Shown: positions 3,495-46,812 of the stretch, in pieces
How positions within the stretch are numbered: position 1 is the stretch's first letter
Layout of the letters: every line of letters starts with the position of its first letter
The notes under the pieces: generated by a model
The model's database searches: none
What the model was told of the DNA's origin: nothing
Seen by the model: the letters and a program-made list of their open reading frames with translations, nothing else
Sequence record: MK295203
DNA from: Escherichia phage vB_EcoM_005
DNA length: 64,000 nt
Strand: one strand, 5' to 3'
Position numbers and translations under genes: made by a program

Positions 3495-3719
3495 ATGAAA
3501 ACTTATCAAGAATTTATTACCGAAGCTAAAAGACATGAAGATGAACTGCCAATTGTTACAAAAACCTTTGATGGCACACTGGCTGATTTTAAAAAAGTCC
3601 CTAGTGATAAGCTTGCTAAATTGACTGGCTCTATCAATGAAAAAGGTGGCAAGGTCACGTTTTCTGCTGGCGGCATAGCCAATCTTAAAAAACTTTTGAA
3701 AGCCGCTGGCGCTGAATAA
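3495..3719 (+). CDS. internal protein (IP)-like with capsid targeting sequence
   Basis: N-terminus MKTYQEFITEA matches the T4 IPI/IPII/IPIII capsid-targeting signal cleaved by the prohead protease; small basic protein. Confidence 0.7.
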   Translation: MKTYQEFITEAKRHEDELPIVTKTFDGTLADFKKVPSDKLAKLTGSINEKGGKVTFSAGGIANLKKLLKAAGAE

Positions 3720-3720
3720 A

Positions 3721-3993
3721 ATGAAATCATACCAAGAATTTATCACTGAATCTATTCTTAATGAAGAAGTAAAAATTAACAAATCTGTTAAGACCGTGAT
3801 TGATAATATAAATCATCTCTATAACATTGATTTGACTAATCACGTGACTTTAGGCAATAAGCGAAACTTTTTTGTTTTTGATACTTCAGAACTTGACCAG
3901 AATCAAATTAACAATATTGAACGTTTTGCTAATGAAAAAGGACTGCGTCACGAAACGGCTGGTTATAAAAAGTATGCAATTTATCTAAAATAA
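3721..3993 (+). CDS. internal protein (IP)-like with variant capsid targeting sequence
   Basis: N-terminus MKSYQEFITES; immediately follows previous IP-like gene. Confidence 0.6.
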   Translation: MKSYQEFITESILNEEVKINKSVKTVIDNINHLYNIDLTNHVTLGNKRNFFVFDTSELDQNQINNIERFANEKGLRHETAGYKKYAIYLK

Positions 3994-4061: not shown

Positions 4062-4247
4062 ATGAAACGTTGCGAATTAATTAGAAATGTTACTGCACTG
4101 GCCGCCGTTACTGCTTTTGGCTTTAGTATGTTTGCAGGATTCATGCTCGATATGCTTTCAACTTCCGAGAATATAATCTCTTTAGTAGTGGCATTTTTAA
4201 TTGGTTCAATCTCTTTTGTTATGGATAAAATCTCTAAAGGTGAGTAA
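4062..4247 (+). CDS. small membrane protein, hypothetical
   Basis: SD ggaga then ATG; two hydrophobic segments. Confidence 0.5.
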   Translation: MKRCELIRNVTALAAVTAFGFSMFAGFMLDMLSTSENIISLVVAFLIGSISFVMDKISKGE

Positions 4248-4248
4248 A

Positions 4249-4629
4249 ATGTATAAAGTGTATGCGGACTACCAAGCTAATCCATCCGAAAAACCAGATT
4301 GTCAAATTGGATGGGCGCATGACACCCTGCTTGAAGCGGTAGATGAAGCTCAAAAATTAGGGTATAGTTATGTAGATATTGTTCAACCAAATGGAACAGT
4401 TATTACTCTTGAAGAATTCAAGAATATCAAAACAAACTTTTTGCTCTTTGCTGGTGATAACTATTATCCTCGTGGCGGTTATGCTGACTTAATTGCAAAA
4501 GCGGCGTCTGAAGATGAACTACGCGATATCATTAAAGAAAACGAGAATAAGCCTCAATATGGGTCTAATCGTTTTGACTGGTGGCAAATTGTTAATGCCA
4601 ATACCCACACAATTGTAGACGAGGGTTAA
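4249..4629 (+). CDS. hypothetical protein
   Basis: 126-aa ORF MYKVYADY..., SD gtgag upstream, tightly packed with neighbours. Confidence 0.5.
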   Translation: MYKVYADYQANPSEKPDCQIGWAHDTLLEAVDEAQKLGYSYVDIVQPNGTVITLEEFKNIKTNFLLFAGDNYYPRGGYADLIAKAASEDELRDIIKENENKPQYGSNRFDWWQIVNANTHTIVDEG

Positions 4630-4914
4630 ATGCTATACGTTAAGGTTACTAATCCAGAGAATGGCTATAACTCCGATCAGGTTGCAGCTGAGTTGTTGAT
4701 TCGCAATTATGGCAAAGATGCTGTTCTTGATGTTCAACAGGTTAATATAGGACGTAGTTCAAGCGATGTTAAGCTCAAAGTTAACAGCCATCGTTATAAT
4801 TCTGTTAACTTTACTTTTTATACCGCAACTGAAAACGGATTGGTCGAATACGACATCTTTAAAAATCCTTTGAAGATTGCTTCTATTAAACTTGATTACA
4901 TTAATATGCTTTAA
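4630..4914 (+). CDS. hypothetical protein
   Basis: 94-aa ORF, start overlaps previous stop (TAAATG). Confidence 0.5.
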   Translation: MLYVKVTNPENGYNSDQVAAELLIRNYGKDAVLDVQQVNIGRSSSDVKLKVNSHRYNSVNFTFYTATENGLVEYDIFKNPLKIASIKLDYINML

Positions 4915-5043
4915 GAATTATGTGATATTATTACTCTATCATTAATACCCTCTATTACCAAAGGTTCTTCCCTCAAAGAACCTTTCATAATAGACAAGGT
5001 CTATTAATCAAACTTACTTTACTTAATTTTATTTGAGGTGTTT

Positions 5044-5310
5044 ATGTTAGTATTAAAATTAGCTTTTTATGACCCAGAAACCAAGACAACAACTACCAAA
5101 CGTTGTTCTATTTCATATGACTGCCAATTTGGCGAAGTTGAGACTGACGGCGAGCCCTTTATGGCAATTGCCGATAGCACATTCGCTAAACCAAAAATAA
5201 TTCCACTAGTTAACGCTGCGGCTTATCTGGTTGCTCCTGAAGAAATGACTTATCATACAATTCAGCACATGGCTAAAGACGATAATGCTCCTGCTGGATT
5301 TGTAATTTAA
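5044..5310 (+). CDS. hypothetical protein
   Basis: ORF after gaggtg SD; ends 5 nt before first tRNA. Confidence 0.45.
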   Translation: MLVLKLAFYDPETKTTTTKRCSISYDCQFGEVETDGEPFMAIADSTFAKPKIIPLVNAAAYLVAPEEMTYHTIQHMAKDDNAPAGFVI

Positions 5311-5315
5311 ATTAA

Positions 5316-5389
5316 GGCCCTGTAGCTCAATGGTTAGCAGCAGTCCCCTCATAAGGGAAAGGTTACCGGTTCAAATCCGGTCTGGGTCA
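5316..5389 (+). tRNA. tRNA with CAU anticodon (Met or lysidine-modified Ile)
   Basis: ggccctgtagctcaatggtt...ccggttcaaatccgg: acceptor stem, D-loop AATGG, T-loop TTCAAATCC, anticodon loop cuCAUaa; no encoded CCA. Confidence 0.7.
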
Positions 5390-5397
5390 TTAACTAC

Positions 5398-5472
5398 GTC
5401 CCGCTGGTGTAATGGATAGCATACGATCCTTCTAAGTTTGCGGTCCTGGTTCGATCCCAGGGCGGGATACCA
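5398..5472 (+). tRNA. tRNA-Arg (UCU)
   Basis: gtcccgctggtgtaatggatagc...ggttcgatcccagggcgggatacca: acceptor stem pairs, T-loop GGTTCGATCC, anticodon loop cuUCUaa, encoded CCA. Confidence 0.75.
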
Positions 5473-5774: not shown

Positions 5775-6248
5775 ATGAAAACTTACAATGAATTTTTGAA
5801 CGAAAGCGTTCTGACTGAAGCCTCCGCTTCAGATGTTCGCGCTGCAGCAACTGCTGCTATTAAAGCCGGTAAATATTCTTATAAAGATGCTTCTGATGAA
5901 TCTCGGTACAAGTTCTACGACGATATGAGAGCTGAAGGCTTTGTGGGTAACTATGTTACCACCGCCTGGAAAAGCATGGTTGCTTCTGGTGCAGCTTTCG
6001 AAAAAGCTTCTGGTAAACCCGCTCCTAAGGCCGACCCTAAAGCAGCACAAGAAAAAAATATTGCTAAAGGAATTATCTCTAAGTATGAAGCAATTCTTAA
6101 AGAGCTTTTAGTAATCAAAACAGAAGGCCAGAAACTGGCACGAGCACATAGCTTCAAAGATAATCCACATGCTCACGACTTAGAGTATGTTGAAGATATT
6201 CAGAAAATCATCAAAGACCGTATCTGGTCTGCTAAACAAATCAAATAA
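5775..6248 (+). CDS. internal protein (IP)-like with capsid targeting sequence
   Basis: N-terminus MKTYNEFLNESVLTEA; 157 aa, lysine/alanine rich. Confidence 0.6.
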   Translation: MKTYNEFLNESVLTEASASDVRAAATAAIKAGKYSYKDASDESRYKFYDDMRAEGFVGNYVTTAWKSMVASGAAFEKASGKPAPKADPKAAQEKNIAKGIISKYEAILKELLVIKTEGQKLARAHSFKDNPHAHDLEYVEDIQKIIKDRIWSAKQIK

Positions 6249-13357: not shown

Positions 13358-13944
13358 TGGCCCTTTATGAACCTGGGTGTATGGGCATTGATGCAAACTT
13401 CATCCGTCGGTCGGAAAATGCTGGAATTATTATCCCAAGTGGTGAGAATATGATTATTAAAAAGTCCTGGCGAAATATCGATGACTGTGATGAAGGAATT
13501 TCAGCCAGTACAATAGATTGGTCAGGTTGTACTGCCGAAATGAAACAGCTTTTAATTGAGGAATATAAAATGGGCTATATTGTAAACGGCTGGCAAGCGG
13601 AACCACATAAAGAACAGACTCCAGACCCATTGATTTGTTATAGCAAAAAATACGGCTTCCGTGCCTGGAGTGATGAATACGACAAATTGGTGAGTTCTAG
13701 ATTCTATGTTTGGATGGGTATATTATTTTTCCCACTCCTAGGGTTTTTCCTGACAACAGATAATGACCTGCCTATTTGTGTATTCGCTTCAGCGATGTCT
13801 GCTGCTATCTTAGGTCTTATCGCATCATTTTTATGGACCTCTGTTATCGAAGTACCTTTTCGTATTTCTAAAGTTAAAAAGGTATATGACGATATCACTA
13901 AGAAAAATACATTAAACTCTTTTATTAAGGAATGCCGTAAATGA
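13357..13944 (+). CDS. membrane-anchored protein (C-terminal FIKEC motif)
   Basis: 195 aa; soluble N-domain then two TM helices; ends ...NSFIKECRK. Confidence 0.5.
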   Translation: MALYEPGCMGIDANFIRRSENAGIIIPSGENMIIKKSWRNIDDCDEGISASTIDWSGCTAEMKQLLIEEYKMGYIVNGWQAEPHKEQTPDPLICYSKKYGFRAWSDEYDKLVSSRFYVWMGILFFPLLGFFLTTDNDLPICVFASAMSAAILGLIASFLWTSVIEVPFRISKVKKVYDDITKKNTLNSFIKECRK

Positions 13945-14177
13945 GCATTGCAATTTATATTAAATCTGAGTCATGTGATTCTTATCTGTATTCCTATGAT
14001 ACCGGAACATCAGAAGAGAAAATTAAAGAAGACTTAGAAAGCGATATGGATATGTTCTGTCCTATTGGTGACTATATGCTTCAAGTGTCTGATAGTGAAA
14101 GTCCATCATCAGAAAATAGACTTCAAATTATTATGCAAGATATTTTTAAACAATCATGGGAACGAGACGATGAGTAA
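13941..14177 (+). CDS. small acidic protein, hypothetical
   Basis: 78 aa ORF overlapping neighbours by ATGA. Confidence 0.45.
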   Translation: MSIAIYIKSESCDSYLYSYDTGTSEEKIKEDLESDMDMFCPIGDYMLQVSDSESPSSENRLQIIMQDIFKQSWERDDE

Positions 14178-14619
14178 GAAAGCTAAGGAATTATCGGCAG
14201 GTATTTTGTTCATGACCGTTGATAAAGAACTAGTTATGGGTCGTGTAACAGGCTCTCGTAATCCAGAGAATATGCGTCATAAATGGGACATTCCTAAGGG
14301 TCATGTCGAACCAGGCGAAGAGCCTATTCAAGCGGCAATGCGCGAAACCGAAGAAGAGATTGGATTCACAGCATACGATCCTGCGTTCCTGAAAGACCTA
14401 GGTGAGTTCAAATATTCAAGCAATAAGAATCTACATCTGTTCTTATATACAGTGCCTGTGGAACACGAGCAGTTCAAGGATTGCAAATGTACGGCTTACC
14501 ATACGTTCCCTGATGGTCGTACTATTCCTGAATTCGATGCGTTCGCTTTGATTAAACGTCCGCAATGGGAATATGTCATGGGCCCGTCGATGTTTAAGGT
14601 TTTAGATTCGCTCTTTTGA
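14170..14619 (+). CDS. nudE: Nudix hydrolase NudE
   Basis: Nudix box GHVEPGEEPIQAAMRETEEEIGF; 149 aa; adjacent to lysozyme e as in T4. Confidence 0.85.
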   Translation: MSKKAKELSAGILFMTVDKELVMGRVTGSRNPENMRHKWDIPKGHVEPGEEPIQAAMRETEEEIGFTAYDPAFLKDLGEFKYSSNKNLHLFLYTVPVEHEQFKDCKCTAYHTFPDGRTIPEFDAFALIKRPQWEYVMGPSMFKVLDSLF

Positions 14620-14649
14620 TATAAATACCTCCTATACTCAGGAGGTATT

Positions 14650-15081
14650 ATGGATATTTTTGATATGTTACGTCAAGACGAAGGTCTTGATTTAAATCTT
14701 TATAAAGACACTGAAGGTTATTGGACTATTGGTATTGGCCAATTGATTACTAAGAACCCTTCTAAAGATGTTGCTCGTGCTGAACTTGATAAGCTTATGG
14801 GTCGAGTTTGTAATGGTCGTATTACTATGGCTGAAGCTGAACAACTCTTTAACCGATCGGTTGAAAATGCTCGTAGAGCTATTCTGCGTAATCCTAAATT
14901 GAAACCTGTTTATGATGTACTGGACGAAGTTCGTCGTTGTGCTTTAATTAACATGGTCTTCCAAATGGGTGAAGCAGGCGTAGCAGGGTTCACTAACTCT
15001 TTACGTATGCTCCAACAGAAACGTTGGAACGATGCGGCAGTTAACCTGGTTTATCGCAGAGAATGTAATTCCTGCATCTAA
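14650..15081 (+). CDS. e: lysozyme (T4 e-type endolysin) with divergent short C-terminus
   Basis: [26 protein letters not shown]...[30 protein letters not shown] matches T4 lysozyme incl. catalytic E11/D20/T26 equivalents; last ~10 aa ([10 protein letters not shown]) do not match T4 and protein is ~20 aa short. Confidence 0.85.
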
Positions 15082-15094
15082 AGAACTTTTGGCG

Positions 15095-15430
15095 ATGTTT
15101 GAATCTGAAGAGTTCACTGAAGAACTGAATGAGAACCTGACCCAGGCCACTCCTCAGGTTATTCGCGTTCGTAACGCTCTGCAGACAGGCATGCAGGCCC
15201 GCGTATCTAAGACTATGAAGCTGGCATTCACCACTTCTAAAAATGAAGACTATGGCGACGGTATTGCAATGAACACTGGACAGTATTATGTCGAGTGGAA
15301 TGGTGAAACCGGTACGGCTAAGATTCGTCAGACACGTGCAGCGGGTGGTAAAATGTTAGACCTTAAACTGAACGTTAAAGAGAAAGACGTCGCGGCTTTG
15401 TTCAAGAATTGGATGAAAACCTACAAATAA
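15095..15430 (+). CDS. hypothetical protein
   Basis: 111 aa from ATG at 15095 (longer track ORF from 15032 overlaps the lysozyme 3' end). Confidence 0.4.
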   Translation: MFESEEFTEELNENLTQATPQVIRVRNALQTGMQARVSKTMKLAFTTSKNEDYGDGIAMNTGQYYVEWNGETGTAKIRQTRAAGGKMLDLKLNVKEKDVAALFKNWMKTYK

Positions 15431-15459
15431 GTTTACATCTCCTAGAATTATGATAGTAT
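15431..15459 (+). promoter_or_regulatory. T4-type early promoter
   Basis: GTTTACatctcctagaattatgaTAGTATatc. Confidence 0.6.
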
Positions 15460-15512
15460 ATCTACAGTTACTTGAACAGACCAATTAAAATATTTACCTT
15501 TAAGGAACCAGT

Positions 15513-16109
15513 ATGAAAACGTATAAAGAATTTATCACCGAAGCTTCTGTAGGAAAGGTCCAAGGCATTAATAAAGATGAGTGGACTTACCGAGGAAACG
15601 GCGTTGACAAAATAGGAAACGGCTTTGACGCTAAAACAGCTCCTATTGAACGGTATTTAGCTACAAAGGCTTCCGATTTTAAAGCTTTCGCTTGGGAAGG
15701 ACTTCGCTGGCGTAACGACCTAAATATTGAAGCTGATGGGCTTAAATTTGGCCATATCCAAGATGTTGTTGCTAGTAACTTGGATGCAGCTTTTATTAAA
15801 GCCGACGGTGACCTTCGTCGCTGGAATTTAAAACTGTTCTCTAAACAGAAAGGTCCGGTATTTGTACCTAAAGCAGGTAAATGGACTATTGATAATAAAT
15901 TGGCTAAAGCGGTTAACTTCGCTGGTCTTGAATTTGCCAAGCACAAATCAGCATGGAAAGGTCTTGATACAATGGCTTTCCGTAAAGAATTTGCTGATGT
16001 TATGACTAAAGCCGGCTTTAAGGCAGAACTAGATACCTCTAAAGGTACGTTTAAAGACGCTAATATTCAGTACGCTTACGCCGTTGCTAATGCAGCCCGT
16101 GGTAATTAA
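15513..16109 (+). CDS. ipIII: internal protein III-like
   Basis: N-terminus MKTYKEFITEAS; 198 aa (T4 IPIII about 194 aa); located between e and denV as in T4. Confidence 0.7.
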   Translation: MKTYKEFITEASVGKVQGINKDEWTYRGNGVDKIGNGFDAKTAPIERYLATKASDFKAFAWEGLRWRNDLNIEADGLKFGHIQDVVASNLDAAFIKADGDLRRWNLKLFSKQKGPVFVPKAGKWTIDNKLAKAVNFAGLEFAKHKSAWKGLDTMAFRKEFADVMTKAGFKAELDTSKGTFKDANIQYAYAVANAARGN

Positions 16110-16137
16110 TAAAGCGATTTACCTTTAAAGGAAACAT

Positions 16138-16440
16138 ATGAAAACCTATCAAGAATTTATCACTGAAGCCCGCGTAACCGCAGGTAAATTAGAAGCCGCT
16201 GTAAATAAAAAGGCCCATTCATTTCATGATTTGTCAGATAAAGACCGTAAGAAACTTGTAAGCCTTTATATTGACAAAGAGCGTATTCTCGCTCTCCCGG
16301 GCGCTAATGAAGGTAAACAGGCCAAGCCTTTGAATTCTGTCGAAAAGAAAATTGATAACTTTGCTTCTAAGTTTGGTATGTCTATGGATGACCTTCAGCA
16401 AGCGGCTACCGAAGCAGCTAAAGCAATTAAAGGTAAATAA
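16138..16440 (+). CDS. ipII: internal protein II-like
   Basis: N-terminus MKTYQEFITEARV; 100 aa; leader shared with ipIII (tttacctttaaaggaa). Confidence 0.7.
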   Translation: MKTYQEFITEARVTAGKLEAAVNKKAHSFHDLSDKDRKKLVSLYIDKERILALPGANEGKQAKPLNSVEKKIDNFASKFGMSMDDLQQAATEAAKAIKGK

Positions 16441-16442
16441 CA

Positions 16443-16471
16443 GTTTACTTTTACAATAGCTGTGATATAGT
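16443..16471 (+). promoter_or_regulatory. T4-type early promoter
   Basis: GTTTACttttacaatagctgtgaTATAGT. Confidence 0.55.
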
Positions 16472-16500
16472 GTTCTCACACAAACATGGAGAACACTAAA

Positions 16501-16917
16501 ATGACTCGTATCAACCTTACCTTAGTATCTGAATTGGCTGACCAACACTTAATGGCTGAATATCGCGAATTACCACGTGTTTTCGGTGCAGTTCGTAAGC
16601 ATGTTGCTAATGGTAAACGTGTTCGTGATTTTAAAATTAGCTCTACTTTTATCCTTGGTACAGGCCATGTTACATTCTTTTACGATAAGCTTGAGTTCTT
16701 ACGTAAACGCCAAATCGAGCTTATAGCCGAATGTTTAAAACGTGGTTTTAATATCAAGGACACTACGGTCCAGGACATTAGTGATATTCCTCAGGAATTC
16801 CGTGGTGACTATACTCCACACGAAGCTTCTATTGCTATATCTCAGGCCCGTTTGGACGAAAAAATTGCACAACGCCCTACCTGGTACAAACATTATGGTA
16901 AGGCTATTTACGCTTAA
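16501..16917 (+). CDS. denV: endonuclease V, pyrimidine-dimer DNA glycosylase
   Basis: [41 protein letters not shown]... essentially identical to recalled T4 endo V over 138 aa. Confidence 0.95.
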
Positions 16918-16959
16918 TTAAATCCGTGATAGAATACTTCTATCAACTTAAGGAATAAT

Positions 16960-17259
16960 ATGAAAACTTATCAAGAATTTATTACAGAAGCCAAAGCTCC
17001 TAAAGCATTTCAAATTGGGGTTCAAGGCAATTTAGACCAAGAATATGTTGATGCTATTGTAGCAAGCCTCGGTAAACAGGGTGTACAAGTGGATTTGGTT
17101 GATTTTACCAAAGGTAATACTTTTAATATTGTTACGTCTAAAGGCTCTTTAGCTAAAGTTAAAAAGGCTTTTGGTGTAGCACAAGCCTACGAAATCGACC
17201 ACTCTGAATTAGAAAATAAAGGTCGCCAGAACACAATTAAAGGTTCTGGTTCTTTCTAA
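16960..17259 (+). CDS. internal protein (IP)-like with capsid targeting sequence
   Basis: N-terminus MKTYQEFITEAKAP; 99 aa; an extra IP relative to T4 at this locus. Confidence 0.6.
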   Translation: MKTYQEFITEAKAPKAFQIGVQGNLDQEYVDAIVASLGKQGVQVDLVDFTKGNTFNIVTSKGSLAKVKKAFGVAQAYEIDHSELENKGRQNTIKGSGSF

Positions 17260-17423
17260 TAAAGGCAAGCCGACCCTCTCCTCATGAACGTCGCGTCCTC
17301 TGAGTGATGGACCTTTCCCTACCTGTAATAAGGTCGAGCCCAAGTGCGGTAAAGGGTTTACATACGGATACATGGACGAATTATGTGCCAAGGAATGGCC
17401 CCACAACTTAAAAAGAGACAATT

Positions 17424-17969
17424 ATGAAAACGTTTTTAACCGGTAGTTATCTATCCCTGATGAATGCTTTTGCAAACCATTCTGATGCTAGAGTAGAACA
17501 CATTTGTAATAGTGGGTTTTATGTACCTGATTCACAAACCCTGTTTAAAGAATGCTGCACCTTAAAACTTGATGGTGGGCGCCAATCCGGTAAAACTAAA
17601 GCAGTATCCATTTTTGCCACAGAATGGTTAGCTAATGGCGGCTCTATTGTTATTTTATCTAATAACACAGCATATGCCAATGTTTCGGCTACTGCAATCC
17701 GAAAGGAATATTTTAATAACCATACAGAAAGTATTAAGTACCGTTTGTACACTGATTCTGTTCGTAGTTTTATTGGTAATACTGCATGCAAATTCCGTGG
17801 ATTATCGCTTTCACGTGTTCTGTATATAATTGATGAGCCTGTTAAAACACCTAATATGGATAAGATTTATGATGCCCATATAAAGGTGGTGCAACATTGC
17901 TGTCATGCATCATGTGTCGAAACCAATCAAACTGCGCGTCCTCTGTTCTTTGTGATAGGAATGCAATGA
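17424..17969 (+). CDS. P-loop NTPase-like protein, hypothetical
   Basis: Walker A-like GGRQSGKT; 181 aa; Cys-rich C-terminus. Confidence 0.45.
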   Translation: MKTFLTGSYLSLMNAFANHSDARVEHICNSGFYVPDSQTLFKECCTLKLDGGRQSGKTKAVSIFATEWLANGGSIVILSNNTAYANVSATAIRKEYFNNHTESIKYRLYTDSVRSFIGNTACKFRGLSLSRVLYIIDEPVKTPNMDKIYDAHIKVVQHCCHASCVETNQTARPLFFVIGMQ

Positions 17970-18262
17970 TGACTGATGAAGAACTTTTTGAGTTCTGTTA
18001 TTTCTCACGTAAGGTTCGAAGAGAGGACCTTACTAAAAATTTCGAGTATGCTTATTTCTATCCATTAGAATATGTATTCATGACAGGGCCCTTTAAGGGC
18101 TCTCGTTTTAGATGTCATGCTCCAAGCATCCGATTAATGAAACAGGTTCCTTACTTCACCCTCGAGTTCATCTCAGGGCCTTGTAAGGGTATTATTACTC
18201 GCAGTCTCTTAACTTATGACCAAGAGATTCATATGATTTCTGGCTGGAAGAAATATGTCTAA
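17966..18262 (+). CDS. hypothetical protein
   Basis: 98 aa from ATG overlapping previous stop (ATGA). Confidence 0.45.
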   Translation: MMTDEELFEFCYFSRKVRREDLTKNFEYAYFYPLEYVFMTGPFKGSRFRCHAPSIRLMKQVPYFTLEFISGPCKGIITRSLLTYDQEIHMISGWKKYV

Positions 18263-29008: not shown

Positions 29009-29920
29009 ATGACTCGTACTGAATACATCAATGCCTTTACTACGTATATCACTGCTGCCACCCCTCCATTAACCCCATACGAGGTAATAGTTTCTAATAT
29101 CAATAAATGGGTAGACCAAATTGATGAAGCACTATCTGGTTGTTTCAAAGATGAAATCGAAAAGATTGCGAGTCGTTTGTTTATTTCTGATATCACGGAA
29201 ACTTTTAAAGGTTCTCGTTTGCTTTCACGCCTGGTCAATAAGGACATCCTTTCAGAGTTTGGCAAAGAGAAACATCCAGGTTCCAGCCATGTTGTTAGCT
29301 ATCAATGGTTTGGTGACGTTTTAAAAAGCTATGTCAAAATTAAAGGTGCCGATCCTAGTGGCCTATTTCCACAACGTTGGGCTGGTGAATTTAAGGCTAA
29401 CTCCGCATTAATTCTAAAAGCAGCAACCAAAACCTTTGTAAAGGGTGATTGTCGTACTATCCACCCTATGGCTAATTGCATGATTAAAACAAACAGCTAT
29501 AAAGGGAAGGTACTTATTTCTATTATTTGGTCGCCTAGTCGGAAACCTAAAGAAGTTGAAGTTTCGAAATACCACGATATTTCCTACAATACCCTGAATA
29601 TGGTAGAACAGGCTTTAGCTTTGATGGATACAGTAGAGAAATATGAGATTCAAGAAATCAAACACCACTTAGGCTGGAAAGGATATGAAGTTTTAGTAAC
29701 AGTTCGCGAAATCAAATGCCCTGTTCCAAAAACCGACGCTGAAATTTATCAAGAAAAATGTGAGGAAATTGTGAACACTGATAAAGAGCCTGCAACCTTA
29801 GAAGACCTGATTGATGAGCTGAATAGCCCGAGGCTATTGGCCTGTGCACAAATTACTAAATCCAAGTTACCAGAAGTCGTTGCGGACCGTCTTGAACAGG
29901 CTCTGGAGCTGCTGAAATGA
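29009..29920 (+). CDS. hypothetical protein
   Basis: 303 aa from ATG after actgaggag SD. Confidence 0.5.
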   Translation: MTRTEYINAFTTYITAATPPLTPYEVIVSNINKWVDQIDEALSGCFKDEIEKIASRLFISDITETFKGSRLLSRLVNKDILSEFGKEKHPGSSHVVSYQWFGDVLKSYVKIKGADPSGLFPQRWAGEFKANSALILKAATKTFVKGDCRTIHPMANCMIKTNSYKGKVLISIIWSPSRKPKEVEVSKYHDISYNTLNMVEQALALMDTVEKYEIQEIKHHLGWKGYEVLVTVREIKCPVPKTDAEIYQEKCEEIVNTDKEPATLEDLIDELNSPRLLACAQITKSKLPEVVADRLEQALELLK

Positions 29921-31257: not shown

Positions 31258-32232
31258 ATGCAAGATTTCGGACATTGGGCGGTATTTGAAGAAACCGATA
31301 TTAAAAACCATATTGGATTTGTATACGTAATCACTTTTGAAGATGGCAAAAAATATGTAGGTGCTAAAAAGATTTGGAAACGAATTAAAGCTGCACCTTG
31401 CACATTTAAACGCGGCCCTAAAAAAGGATTTGAAGAATCTGATTGGAAAACCTATACCTCATCATCTAATGAACTAAACGCAATGATAGAAAAGGGTATA
31501 AGTCCTAAAGAGTACCTTATTGTAGGATGGTATCCTACTTGGGGTAAAACTCTTATGGCAGAAATGGAAATGCAATTAGCCAATGATGTTTTACGAGACC
31601 CTATGTGGCTTAACAAGCAAATTGGCGGACATTTCAACCCTAACTGCTTTGACGATTTAACCGCTGACGAAGTTGGCAAGTATATTAAATCTGGGTGGCA
31701 ATTTGGTCGTTCTAAAACAGAAAAACATTCTGTTACCTATAATTGCTCTAAATTTACTATATGGGACTATCAAGAAAATAAAGCAGTGGAAGTTCTAAAT
31801 CAAAATGAGTTTGCTCGTAATAATGATTTAAGTAGCAACCATCTAACTAGACTACTTCAAGGAACTCTCGACCTTATTAAAGATCGCTGGGGACTTCCAC
31901 CAGATATTGCTCGTCAGCGTTATAAATTTCAGGACGTTTCTTCAGGAACAAAATTTTTATCTAATTCTGAGTTAGAAGAATTTTACGGTATGACTCGCGG
32001 TCAGGCTAACAAAGCCGTTAAAGATGGAAGAGCCGTTAAATTGGTAGTCGAAAGCAAAGAAGACCACATTAAAAAACTTGGCTCTATCGAATTGGTAAAA
32101 ACCGAAAAGACAAAAGTTACGTCTCAAGTAATGCTTAACAGTTTTAAAGATATAGTTAATCCTATGACCACTGCCGAAAAATCAGAAATGATTGAATGGT
32201 TGGAAAGTTATATAACTTATTTGAAATCTTAA
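31258..32232 (+). CDS. GIY-YIG homing endonuclease-like protein
   Basis: N-terminal GFVYVITFEDGKKYVGAKK (GIY...YIG pattern) with downstream conserved R/E/N; 324 aa. Confidence 0.6.
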   Translation: MQDFGHWAVFEETDIKNHIGFVYVITFEDGKKYVGAKKIWKRIKAAPCTFKRGPKKGFEESDWKTYTSSSNELNAMIEKGISPKEYLIVGWYPTWGKTLMAEMEMQLANDVLRDPMWLNKQIGGHFNPNCFDDLTADEVGKYIKSGWQFGRSKTEKHSVTYNCSKFTIWDYQENKAVEVLNQNEFARNNDLSSNHLTRLLQGTLDLIKDRWGLPPDIARQRYKFQDVSSGTKFLSNSELEEFYGMTRGQANKAVKDGRAVKLVVESKEDHIKKLGSIELVKTEKTKVTSQVMLNSFKDIVNPMTTAEKSEMIEWLESYITYLKS

Positions 32233-32589: not shown

Positions 32590-32885
32590 AACGTTTTGAA
32601 GAATATGTAGCTACTAATTGGACCGCATGGGACAAGTTTGGTGATGATTGGTACTTCCATGACTGTGACCTGAACCCGGAATTCTTTGTCGATAAGGAAG
32701 AAGACCTTAAAGACATCTATGCTCTGTCAGAGATTCATGGTATTAAACCAACCGTTTATTTCTCTTTCGATGACACAGGTTTTCTTGTACAGGTTTACGT
32801 CCCATACAACACTAATGATGACGAAGAAGTTATCAAAACTTGGGACTACCAAGGAGTTATTTCCTATGGACCAAAAGTTAACTAA
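32586..32885 (+). CDS. hypothetical protein
   Basis: 99 aa. Confidence 0.45.
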   Translation: MKRFEEYVATNWTAWDKFGDDWYFHDCDLNPEFFVDKEEDLKDIYALSEIHGIKPTVYFSFDDTGFLVQVYVPYNTNDDEEVIKTWDYQGVISYGPKVN

Positions 32886-33084
32886 AATCGAAATCTACGG
32901 TATCCCTGAGACAGTCATGGATGACAAGCCTCTTATAGTATCATTGGCCAAACGTGCCGGCTTCAAGAGCTTAGCGATACGCTATCCTGTCATATTTGTC
33001 GATAATAAGAAAATAGAAAATATTCCTGCCTTTAAGTCACTTTTGATTGAACTTGGTTATGACCGAGATTTAATTGAAGATTAG
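32866..33084 (+). CDS. hypothetical protein
   Basis: 72 aa from ATG after ggag SD. Confidence 0.4.
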   Translation: MDQKLTKIEIYGIPETVMDDKPLIVSLAKRAGFKSLAIRYPVIFVDNKKIENIPAFKSLLIELGYDRDLIED

Positions 33085-44199: not shown

Positions 44200-46812
44200 A
44201 TGCAAGAATTCTATTTGACAGTCGAACAAATCGGTGATAATATTCTCGAACGTTACATCGATAAAAATGGTAACGAACGTAGTCGTGAAGTTCCTTACAA
44301 GCCTACAATGTTTATGCATGCTAATCCAGAGCAAGCCGTAAAATACATTGATATCTATGGTAAGGGTTGTGTTAAGAAAGAATTCGACTCTATGCGTGAT
44401 GCATCCCAATGGATGAAACGTATGGACGATATGGGTCTCGAAGCCCTGGGTATGGACGACTATAAATTAGCCTATTTGTCTGATACCTATCGTAAAGAAA
44501 TCAAATACGATTCTTCTAAGATTCGTATTGCTAACTTCGACATCGAGGTAACATCTCCTGATGGATTCCCTGAACCAGCTCAGGCTAAACATCCTATCGA
44601 TGCCATTACCCACTACGACTCGATTGACGATAAATTCTATGTATTCGACCTTTTAGTTTCACCTTATGGTACCGTTGAAGAGTGGTCTATTAAAATCGCT
44701 GAGAAACTCCAAGAAGAAGGTGGTGACGAAGTTCCACAAGAAATCATTGACAAAATCGTTTATCTTCCGTTTAATTCCGAAGAAGAAATGATGCTTGAGT
44801 ATCTGAATTTCTGGCAGCAGAAAACTCCTGTTATTTTGACTGGTTGGAACGTTGAGTCGTTTGACGTACCATACGTTTATAACCGTCTGAAAAATCTGTT
44901 TGGTGAGAACACTGCTAAGCGATTAAGCCCACACCGTAAGACTCGTGTTAAAGTTATCGAGAACATGTATGGTGCTCGTGAAATTATTACACTGTTCGGT
45001 ATCTCTGTTCTGGATTATATCGACCTTTATAAAAAATTCAGCTTTACCAACCAGCCTTCTTATTCTTTGGATTATGTTTCTGAATATGAATTGAAAGTAG
45101 GTAAGTTGAAATATGATGGTCCAATCTCCAAGTTACGTGAGACGAACCACCAACGATATATTTCCTATAACATTATCGACGTATATCGTGTAGTGCAGAT
45201 TGATATGAAACGCCAGTTCATTCTTCTGAGTTTGGACATGGGTTATTATGCTAAGATGCAGATTCAGTCGGTGTTCAGTCCAATTAAGACTTGGGACGCT
45301 ATTATCTTTAATAGCCTTAAAGAACAAGGCAAGGTCATTCCACAAGCTCGTTCACACGTGGTCCAACCTTATCCTGGTGCTTTCGTTAAGGAACCTATTC
45401 CTAACGCATACAAATATGTAATGAGTTTTGACCTTACATCTCTGTACCCGAGTATTATTCGACAAGTGAATATAAGCCCAGAGACCATCGCAGGCACATT
45501 CGCTAATGCACCGATACATGAATATATTGCCGGAACAGCTCCGCGTCCTAGCGACGTCTACAGTTGCTCTCCTAACGGCATGATGTACTATAAAGACCGT
45601 GATGGTGTGATTCCTACAGAAATCACTAAGGTGTTCTTACAACGTAAAGAACATAAAGGTTATATGCTTGCAGCTCAACGTAATGGCGAGTTAATTAAAG
45701 AAGCATTAGAAAATCCTAATCTGTCAGTTGATAGTCCACTGGATATCGATTATCGTTTTGACTTCTCTGACGAAATCAAAGCCAAGATTAAAACGCTGTC
45801 AGCACCTTCTTTAAAAGAAATGTTGTTCAGAGCCGAACGTACTGAAGTCGCAGGTATGACTGCTCAGATTAACCGTAAGTTGCTTATCAACTCCCTTTAT
45901 GGTGCACTTGGTAACGTATGGTTCCGTTACTATGACCTCAGGAACGCAACTGCAATCACACTGTTTGGTCAAATGGCCCTCCAATGGATTGAACGTAAGG
46001 TTAACGAATATCTGAACAGCGTGTGTAAGACTGAAAATCAGAAGTTCGTGCTCTATGGTGATACTGACTCCATTTATGTTAAGGCAGATGCAATCATCAA
46101 TAAAGTAGGCGAAGATAAATTCCGTGACACTAACCACTGGGTCGACTTCTTAGATAAATTTGCACGTGAACGTATGGAACCGGCTATTGATGCAGGCTTC
46201 CGTGAGATGTGCGAGTACATGAACAACAAACAACACTTGATGTTCATGGACCGAGAAGCTATCGCAGGTCCTCCACTTGGTTCTAAAGGTCTTGGTGGAT
46301 TCTGGACAGGCAAGAAACGTTATGCACTTAACGTTTGGGACATGGAAGGCACTCGTTATGCCGAACCACACTTGAAAATCATGGGTCTCGAAACTCAGAA
46401 ATCAAGTACACCTAAAGCGGTTCAGAAAGCTCTGAAAGAATGTATCCGTCGTATGCTTCAGGAAGGCGAGGCATCTTTGCAAGAATATTTCAAACAGTTT
46501 AATAAGGAATTTAACGAACTGGACTATGTAAGCATTGCAGCAGTATCCAGTGCTAACAACATCGAGAAATATAATGAAGGCGGATTGGTATATGTACTGC
46601 CACTTAAAGAAGGCAACCCATTCGGTGAAGCCTGTATGGCATGGCCGTCAGGTATTGAACTTCCGATTCAGATTCGTGACCAAGTCCTCCGTTGGATGGA
46701 CTACAACGTACTGTTCCAAAAGACCTTTATCAAGCCTCTGACTGGTTTTACCGAGTCTGCTAAAATCGACTACGAGAAAAAAGCAACATTATTTGACATG
46801 TTTGACTTTTAA
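44200..46812 (+). CDS. 43: DNA polymerase gp43 (family B)
   Basis: exo motifs FDIEV, YNIID; pol motifs DLTSLYPSII, KKRY (GKKRYALNVWDMEG), YGDTDS; very close to recalled RB69/T4 gp43. Confidence 0.95.
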   Translation: MQEFYLTVEQIGDNILERYIDKNGNERSREVPYKPTMFMHANPEQAVKYIDIYGKGCVKKEFDSMRDASQWMKRMDDMGLEALGMDDYKLAYLSDTYRKEIKYDSSKIRIANFDIEVTSPDGFPEPAQAKHPIDAITHYDSIDDKFYVFDLLVSPYGTVEEWSIKIAEKLQEEGGDEVPQEIIDKIVYLPFNSEEEMMLEYLNFWQQKTPVILTGWNVESFDVPYVYNRLKNLFGENTAKRLSPHRKTRVKVIENMYGAREIITLFGISVLDYIDLYKKFSFTNQPSYSLDYVSEYELKVGKLKYDGPISKLRETNHQRYISYNIIDVYRVVQIDMKRQFILLSLDMGYYAKMQIQSVFSPIKTWDAIIFNSLKEQGKVIPQARSHVVQPYPGAFVKEPIPNAYKYVMSFDLTSLYPSIIRQVNISPETIAGTFANAPIHEYIAGTAPRPSDVYSCSPNGMMYYKDRDGVIPTEITKVFLQRKEHKGYMLAAQRNGELIKEALENPNLSVDSPLDIDYRFDFSDEIKAKIKTLSAPSLKEMLFRAERTEVAGMTAQINRKLLINSLYGALGNVWFRYYDLRNATAITLFGQMALQWIERKVNEYLNSVCKTENQKFVLYGDTDSIYVKADAIINKVGEDKFRDTNHWVDFLDKFARERMEPAIDAGFREMCEYMNNKQHLMFMDREAIAGPPLGSKGLGGFWTGKKRYALNVWDMEGTRYAEPHLKIMGLETQKSSTPKAVQKALKECIRRMLQEGEASLQEYFKQFNKEFNELDYVSIAAVSSANNIEKYNEGGLVYVLPLKEGNPFGEACMAWPSGIELPIQIRDQVLRWMDYNVLFQKTFIKPLTGFTESAKIDYEKKATLFDMFDF

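Follow-up and report, generated by a model that had tools for sequence, protein, structure and literature searches.

Three intact CTS-bearing internal-protein genes at the e-denV locus of Escherichia phage vB_EcoM_005

The 64,000-nucleotide stretch of Escherichia phage vB_EcoM_005 analyzed here (record MK295203; hereafter the window) belongs to a T-even phage of the JS98-like genus Dhakavirus; its e-denV internal-protein (IP) locus holds, by sequence comparison, three intact IP cassettes. The window is 93-97% identical to Dhakavirus (JS98-like, Tevenvirinae) genomes. Phage 04086 matches perfectly across 200 nt, but its locus is a different one. Judging from the structure of the genes, their homology, the conserved CTSs and the polymorphism of the cassettes, the three CTS proteins are very probably packaged, cleaved by gp21 and injected; the first two likely block GmrSD nucleases, the Ip7-like protein likewise acts in anti-defense against a different target, and the cassettes vary by recombination at the leader-CTS repeat. 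The three-gene arrangement is already known and annotated in relatives and is one more example of a hypervariable locus. It adds little as a discovery, the families, the position and the variability all being present in RefSeq annotations and the T4 literature. Among the three genes, only the Ip7-like one belongs to a family without an assigned target (T4 Ip1-3 all block GmrSD-type nucleases), and the cassette polymorphisms among close relatives form a clean natural panel for host-range tests.

Gene content and CTS conservation

The gene order in the window is nudE-e-[IP]-ipIII-ipII-denV-IP-vs.8. The features of the locus are as follows, with an arrow marking predicted cleavage sites.

14620..14627, + strand: late-promoter motif TATAAATA of T4 type, lying before e; no second motif of this kind was seen near the locus
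14650..15081, + strand: truncated lysozyme gene e, normal through residues 1-133 and then ending in 10 aa read out of frame; the last 31 codons are absent
15049..15050, no strand: junction of a 99-nt gap, without microhomology
15050..15430, + strand: fourth CTS gene (JS98 orf114 / MX01 gp115 family, phrog_15461), without its first six codons MKTYNE, reading from FIAE↓NVIPAS
15413..15430, + strand: CTS-like codons ATGAAAACCTACAAATAA, reading MKTYK and then a stop, at the 3' end of the orf114-family gene; kept in JS98, ABTNLsp5, AnYang and MX01
15432..15459, + strand: early-promoter-like site ahead of ipIII, TTTACA-16-TAGTAT, TG-extended (a consensus match only)
15493..15507, + strand: ipIII leader tttacctttaaggaa, including the Shine-Dalgarno sequence
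15513..16109, + strand: ipIII orthologue, 198 aa, by PHROG match and identity to T4
15513-15542, + strand: CTS of ipIII, codons 1-10, with predicted gp21 cleavage ITE↓A
16118..16133, + strand: ipII leader tttacctttaaaggaa, which contains the 10-nt palindrome CCTTTAAAGG
16138..16440, + strand: ipII orthologue, 100 aa, CTS MKTYQEFITE↓A, by PHROG match and identity to T4
16444..16471, + strand: early-promoter-like site ahead of denV (motif match)
16501..16917, + strand: denV (endonuclease V), not a CTS protein; 97% amino acid identity to T4 DenV
16907..16935, + strand: early-promoter-like site directly ahead of the Ip7-like gene, TTTACG-17-TAGAAT (motif match)
16960..17259, + strand: Ip7-family internal head protein, 99 aa, CTS MKTYQEFITE↓A, phrog_2667

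A first-pass annotation, made from the letters and an ORF list, had described three CTS-bearing IP genes around denV, one more than in T4. All three ORFs are intact at these positions, encoding 198, 100 and 99 aa, and the excess over T4 is correct for the e-denV locus, where T4 has only ipIII and ipII and nothing between denV and vs.8. The ipIII product begins MKTYKEFITEA, read directly from the ORF listing, and belongs to the IPIII family (phrog_5341, E 2e-114 across residues 1-198, in PHROG profiles), with 88.6% amino acid and 90.5% nucleotide identity to T4 ipIII; its predicted mature form has 188 aa and a pI of 9.6. The ipII product, beginning MKTYQEFITEA, is assigned to the IPII family in the same way (phrog_7857, E 4.8e-54 across residues 1-100) and is closer still to its T4 counterpart (93.1% amino acid, 93.4% nucleotide identity), with a predicted mature form of 90 aa and pI 9.7. 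Between ipII and the third CTS gene sits denV, whose ORF spans 16486-16917 with the true start at 16501. The third CTS protein begins MKTYQEFITEAKAP and is a full-length member of phrog_2667 (internal head protein / Ip7; E 2.7e-43 across residues 1-99), with a predicted mature form of 89 aa and pI 9.0. Together the predicted mature products of the three genes range from 9.5 to 20.8 kDa in size and from 9.0 to 9.7 in pI.

Six CTS-tagged proteins had been counted in the window as a whole. A degenerate CTS-coding DNA pattern matched at six positions (3495, 3721, 5775, 15513, 16138 and 16960) and at none in 100 dinucleotide-preserving shuffles of the sequence, so the count of six CTS ORFs holds, far beyond chance. 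The three that lie outside the e-denV locus are all downstream of 57B:

3495..3719, + strand: CTS ORF downstream of 57B, 74 aa, phrog_8765 "internal virion protein"
3721..3993, + strand: CTS ORF, 90 aa, MKSYQEFITE↓S, Ip9 family; 86 of 90 residues identical to MX01 gp141, annotated "Ip9"
5739: late-promoter motif TATAAATA belonging to the 157-aa CTS ORF (from a motif search)
5775..6248, + strand: CTS ORF, 157 aa, MKTYNEFLNE↓S, phrog_2280

All CTS ORFs of the window thus fall in two IP loci, e-denV or 57B-tRNA. The idea of an expanded set of injected cargo is right in number (six, against three in T4), but such a set is normal for the genus and not peculiar to this window. Pfam gave no family above threshold for any of seven CTS proteins, and a sequence search of the PDB with the 74-aa protein returned chance-level matches only.

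Conservation of the CTS follows what is known of its function in T4, where targeting relies on residues Y4 and F7 and processing on I8 and E10, where cleavage by the gp21 protease follows the Glu of (L/I)-x-E, and where the first 10 residues of IPIII are sufficient to bring a protein, foreign ones included, into the prohead core (PMC9026906). Y4, F7, I/L8 and E10 are kept in all six CTSs of the window and are followed by Ala or Ser. The predicted gp21 prohead-protease site is I-T-E↓A in the three genes of the locus and I/L-x-E↓A/S in all six, which bears out the conservation of the cleavage site that the first-pass annotation had proposed to check. The predicted mature products of all six ORFs are basic (pI 8.0-9.7).

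The similarity among these genes extends only slightly beyond the CTS. The leader tttacctttaaaggaa is exact upstream of ipII (16118-16133) and one A shorter upstream of ipIII, in agreement with the near-identical leaders noted earlier, as is the shared MKTY[QK]EFITEA start of both proteins, which can be read directly. Leader and CTS together form a 62-nt direct repeat that a repeat search found in three copies, two of them with 79% and 65% identity to the ipIII copy. Across the six CTS genes, the first 33 nt are 67-94% identical and the next 90 nt are 24-40% identical, which is background, so that paralogue similarity is limited to the leader and 11 codons.

Gaps of about 99 nucleotides and predicted expression signals

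The first-pass annotation did not note a fourth CTS gene, which lies at 15050-15430, after e and before ipIII; its first six codons are missing from the window. The damage to this gene and to e has a single source, a 99-nt gap between 15049 and 15050 that both truncates e and removes the start of the orf114-family gene; the missing nucleotides are present in all 23 of the 23 relatives that cover the stretch fully. Exact-sequence look-ups returned no entry for either the truncated lysozyme or the IPIII encoded here. Gaps of the same size occur at 16 junctions between 11.5 and 47 kb when the window is compared with ABTNLsp5 and MX01:

11521, 13143, 15049, 19928, 22139, 23752, 23870, 24613
27012, 28543, 29884, 30453, 32920, 39398, 39875, 46586

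The gap is 99 nt at 14 of the 16 junctions and 100-102 nt at the other two. Fifteen junctions were seen against both relatives and one (29884) against ABTNLsp5 only. At several of them about 100 nt have apparently been replaced by a single base, and a further 99-nt gap is implied within the 324-aa ORF at 31258, which has 357 aa in relatives. A constant gap size at so many sites speaks for a technical artifact of assembly or processing and against a biological cause, and the gaps are almost certainly technical. We considered whether the deletion at 15049 could be a real event producing an endolysin-defective phage and rejected this once gaps of equal size had been found in 15 or more places. 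In the real phage the number of CTS genes is probably four at the e-denV locus and seven in the window. Since ipIII, ipII, denV and the Ip7-like gene are all free of such gaps, the three-gene finding stands. Users of this window of MK295203 should be aware that systematic gaps of about 99 nt break genes.

Motif matches suggest how the IP genes may be expressed. Late transcripts that extend across the IP genes probably start from the late-promoter motif at 14620, and early-promoter-like sites precede ipIII, denV and the Ip7-like gene. No convincing terminator was found in 14500-17600, and an Rfam scan of 14000-18000 at E<=1 gave no RNA family. A structured RNA in the 169-nt spacer after the Ip7-like gene (17258-17426) was considered and rejected, as shuffled versions of the spacer fold equally well (z = -0.32); in addition, a portion of the spacer aligns with T4 vs.8 at the 5' end of that gene.

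Expected roles of the three proteins

By analogy with T4, the CTS would dock each IP into the scaffolding core of the assembling prohead, the gp21 prohead protease would remove it after Glu10 (I-T-E↓A), and the small basic mature protein would remain in the head with the DNA and be injected into the next host. The gp21 protease and gp22 scaffold genes lie outside the 64-kb window; both are described as part of the core gene set in T4-related phages (PMC9026906). The literature searched yielded neither virion proteomics nor injection data on any Dhakavirus IP. In T4, Ip1, Ip2 and Ip3 each inhibit one variant of the GmrSD-family type IV enzymes without cross-protection (PMC12373910), and ECOR17 is a host on which T4 requires IPIII, a protein that works in the cytoplasm (PMC9391042). 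Because the ipIII and ipII products are about 90% identical to T4 proteins with GmrSD targets, their homology with T4 Ip3 and Ip2 makes it most likely that they inhibit certain modification-dependent (type IV) restriction nucleases of the GmrSD family. Genome comparisons point to an arabinosylated hydroxycytosine-type modification in Dhakaviruses and not to glucosyl-hmC (PMC13326640), and the nucleases that these phages face may therefore differ from those blocked by T4 Ip2 and Ip3.

For the Ip7-like protein, most likely an anti-defense agent of the first minute against a different target, the argument is by analogy only. Relatives of this protein occur in 282 phage records from several genera. 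The genes at the same position in other Dhakaviruses (JS98 orf112, MX01 gp111 and AnYang gp052, all annotated "internal head protein") encode proteins about 96-100% identical to it, and gp023 of Klebsiella phage F48 (Marfavirus), also located after denV, is 75% identical. Identity falls to 49-51% over the full length for the Ip7 proteins of CC31, T2 and MX01 (57B locus) and to about 47% for a relative in RB69, annotated "internal head protein" and likewise found at the 57B locus. A family alignment of 16 sequences, reaching down to 47% identity, has 27 invariant columns distributed along the protein; conservation from end to end indicates that the family is under selection as a protein and is not a mere tag.

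Searches of the PDB by sequence returned chance-level matches only and no solved relative of the Ip7-like protein. An AlphaFold model computed from the family alignment reaches a pLDDT of 74.6 overall and about 85 across residues 12-90. The CTS is disordered in this model, and the predicted core is a beta-alpha-beta-beta-alpha-beta fold to which a C-terminal helix is added. Foldseek matched this model in the PDB only to generic ferredoxin/ACT-like structures (best E 9e-3, TM 0.4-0.54), and IPI* was absent among the best 50 matches. Such generic matches provide no mechanistic lead, and the target proposed for the protein is pure analogy. The literature searched gives no function for any Ip7 family member.

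The Ip7-like protein might instead be packaged by its CTS and play a structural part, neutralizing or organizing DNA in the head or aiding head assembly. Its mature form is basic (pI 9.0) and its generic predicted fold offers no hint of an inhibitor, both of which would suit such a part; T4 IPs are present at about 300 copies per head and IPIII mutants have slower head assembly and a smaller burst (PMC9026906), and the lysines of the internal proteins touch DNA phosphates (PMC3012670). We nevertheless consider a structural role unlikely, because a specific nuclease has been identified as the target of each of the three T4 IPs (PMC12373910), T4 can do without its IPs on laboratory hosts (PMC9026906), and the scattered occurrence of the genes, the fast turnover of cassettes and their shifts from one locus to the other fit arms-race genes better than a structural requirement.

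It is very improbable that the third ORF merely inherited its leader and CTS by recombination and is a cassette in decay or else a protein of the cytoplasm whose tag has no meaning: paralogue similarity does stop after the leader and 11 codons, recombination at leader/CTS repeats clearly occurs, and a possible fossil CTS start lies at 15413-15430, but the ORF is intact and conserved over its full length in those 282 records with its 27 invariant columns, its core fold is predicted with confidence (pLDDT of about 85 across residues 12-90), none of the CTS residues that T4 requires has been lost (PMC9026906), and in T4 the 10-residue CTS alone brings foreign proteins into the head. The first-pass annotation had named CTS similarity restricted to the first few codons, arising by shared leader recombination without packaging, as evidence against its own proposal. 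The restriction is real, but it does not count against packaging, because such confinement is what defines a CTS and ten residues suffice for packaging in T4.

Returning to anti-defense as the preferred role, a more specific version can be put forward tentatively and may well prove wrong. The post-denV Ip7 paralogue of Dhakaviruses and Marfavirus F48 could be a dedicated injected inhibitor of a modification-dependent nuclease that attacks the non-glucosyl (arabinosyl-type) cytosine modification of these phages. It would then have diverged from the Ip7 of the 57B locus, with which it shares 50% identity and which MX01 carries alongside it, so as to deal with another variant of the enzyme.

Cassette turnover and comparison with known systems

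The CTS genes of the e-denV locus differ in number and order among the phages compared:

T4: ipIII, ipII, denV (2 CTS genes)
JS98: ipIII, orf114, denV, Ip7-like (3 CTS genes)
ABTNLsp5: orf114-like, ipIII, denV, 119-aa CTS ORF, Ip7-like (4 CTS genes)
MX01: gp115, ipIII, ipII, denV, Ip7-like (4 CTS genes)
AnYang: orf114-like, ipIII, ipII, denV, 119-aa CTS ORF, Ip7-like (5 CTS genes)
The window: decapitated orf114-like, ipIII, ipII, denV, Ip7-like (3 intact CTS genes)

MX01 is colinear with the window over 13941-17408, the only differences being the 99-nt gap and a 13-nt intergenic indel. In JS98 the orf114 gene follows ipIII, whereas in the window it precedes it, and in Klebsiella phage F48 the order is IP-denV-IP-Ip7-like. 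The shared leader-plus-CTS repeat would support homologous recombination through which cassette number and order vary among relatives. The 119-aa CTS ORF of ABTNLsp5 and AnYang, missing here, is bounded by a 35-nt leader/CTS repeat, and this flanking of the cassette directly shows the shared repeat at work in the gain and loss of cassettes. The CTS-like codons at 15413-15430 are possibly the fossil start of a lost downstream cassette. On a larger scale, the ipIII-ipII-denV block is 90-93% identical to T4 in nucleotide sequence, against 65-75% for the flanking nudE, e and vs.8, and looks like a mosaic block recently exchanged between genera.

IPIII and IPII of T4 are the nearest known counterparts of the first two proteins, encoded at the same e-denV locus in the same order, with lengths within 5 aa and CTSs that differ from those of the window at position 9 only (T for A). 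T4 ipII is preceded by a promoter with a long inverted repeat, whereas ipII of the window, starting 28 nt after the ipIII stop, has neither a promoter of its own nor a stem-loop. T4 IPI* (a GmrSD inhibitor with an NMR structure; PMC3012670) is a small injected protein delivered by its CTS, as is predicted for the third protein, but the two have no sequence similarity past the CTS. The closest known system for the third protein is the Ip7 family (CC31 ip7, MX01 gp140 "Ip7", the internal head proteins of T2 and RB69, PHROG 2667), whose members likewise have 99-102 aa and the same CTS. The Ip7 genes of CC31, T2 and RB69 and MX01 gp140 lie downstream of 57B, whereas the paralogue described here follows denV, a placement common to the window, JS98 orf112, MX01 gp111, AnYang gp052 and Klebsiella phage F48 gp023. 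MX01 has both paralogues, gp140 at the 57B locus and gp111 after denV.

The locus as a whole conforms to the hypervariable IP loci known from T-even phages (Repoila et al., 1994; Comeau et al., 2007; via PMC2839356, PMC3012670). T-even IP genes occupy two highly variable loci with more than 30 IP variants and early-promoter-associated elements; only the CTS is conserved between T-even IPs, the genes are gained, lost and reshuffled among close relatives, and the hypervariability of both loci has been on record since 1994 (PMC2839356, PMC3012670). The e-denV locus of the window follows the same pattern, with no material difference.

Recurrent gaps of about 99 nt

Alignment to the related genomes ABTNLsp5 and MX01 shows that a segment of about 99 nt is missing from the window at each of 16 junctions.

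Junctions: 11521, 13143, 15049, 19928, 22139, 23752, 23870, 24613, 27012, 28543, 29884, 30453, 32920, 39398, 39875 and 46586

The missing segment is exactly 99 nt at 14 of these and 100-102 nt at the other two; all are visible against both relatives except the gap at 29884, which is seen against ABTNLsp5 only. At several junctions a single base apparently stands in for the roughly 100 nt, and no Ns are present. The gaps disrupt several conserved genes, including e, nrdC and nrdC.8. Because their size is so constant, they point to an artefact of assembly or processing.

Lysozyme e and a fourth CTS gene

One such gap falls within 14650-15430 and affects two genes, cutting lysozyme e short at residue 133 and removing the MKTYNE start of a fourth gene with a capsid targeting sequence (CTS), a member of the JS98 orf114 / MX01 gp115 family (phrog_15461). 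In related phages the two genes overlap, the stop codon of e sharing bases with the second gene's ATG. The window's copy terminates in ...NWMKTYK*: at 15413-15430 a sequence resembling a CTS start (ATGAAAACCTACAAA) runs into TAA, and the same ending is kept in JS98, ABTNLsp5, AnYang and MX01. These CTS-like codons may represent what is left, as a fossil, of the 5' end of a downstream cassette that has been lost.

A SegE-type protein at the gene 49 position

At 31258-32232 the window encodes a SegE-type GIY-YIG protein (Pfam PF19835, E 7.8e-34) of 324 aa, compared with 357 aa in relatives. ABTNLsp5 and MX01 instead carry gene 49 (endonuclease VII) at this site, and the ABTNLsp5 gene 49 ORF has no tblastn match anywhere in the window. 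The SegE-type protein was found in at least E33, 04086, ABTNLS3, PSD9, LQ5, FB and Bp7; in E33, the sole genome examined for position, it also occupies the gene 49 site.

Internal protein loci in relatives and in T4

The leaders of the internal protein genes ipIII (15491-15503) and ipII (16117-16128), TATTTACCTTTAA, form a 13-nt perfect complement to the last codons of ipII (16427-16439, TTAAAGGTAAATA), and the palindrome CCTTTAAAGG lies within the ipII leader; this may be due to chance.

MX01 has two paralogues of the Ip7 internal head protein family, one per internal protein locus (45389-45697 and 32646-32945), which are 50% identical to each other. The window, in contrast, has an Ip7-family copy at the denV locus only, and its 57B locus holds a 74-aa phrog_8765 protein and Ip9 in place of the second MX01 copy. 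Phage 04086, a poorly annotated Dhakavirus, represents another variant of the e-denV locus: within 4200-5430, denV apparently follows e almost directly, without ipIII or ipII, and denV is in turn followed by two distinct CTS ORFs, one 119 aa and the other 85 aa long.

Between T4 and the window, the ipIII-ipII-denV block (15413-16917) is 85-93% identical at the nucleotide level, whereas the flanking nudE, e and vs.8 are only 65-75% identical. This higher identity in the block than in its flanks suggests that ipIII-ipII-denV is a mosaic block swapped between Tequatrovirus and Dhakavirus.
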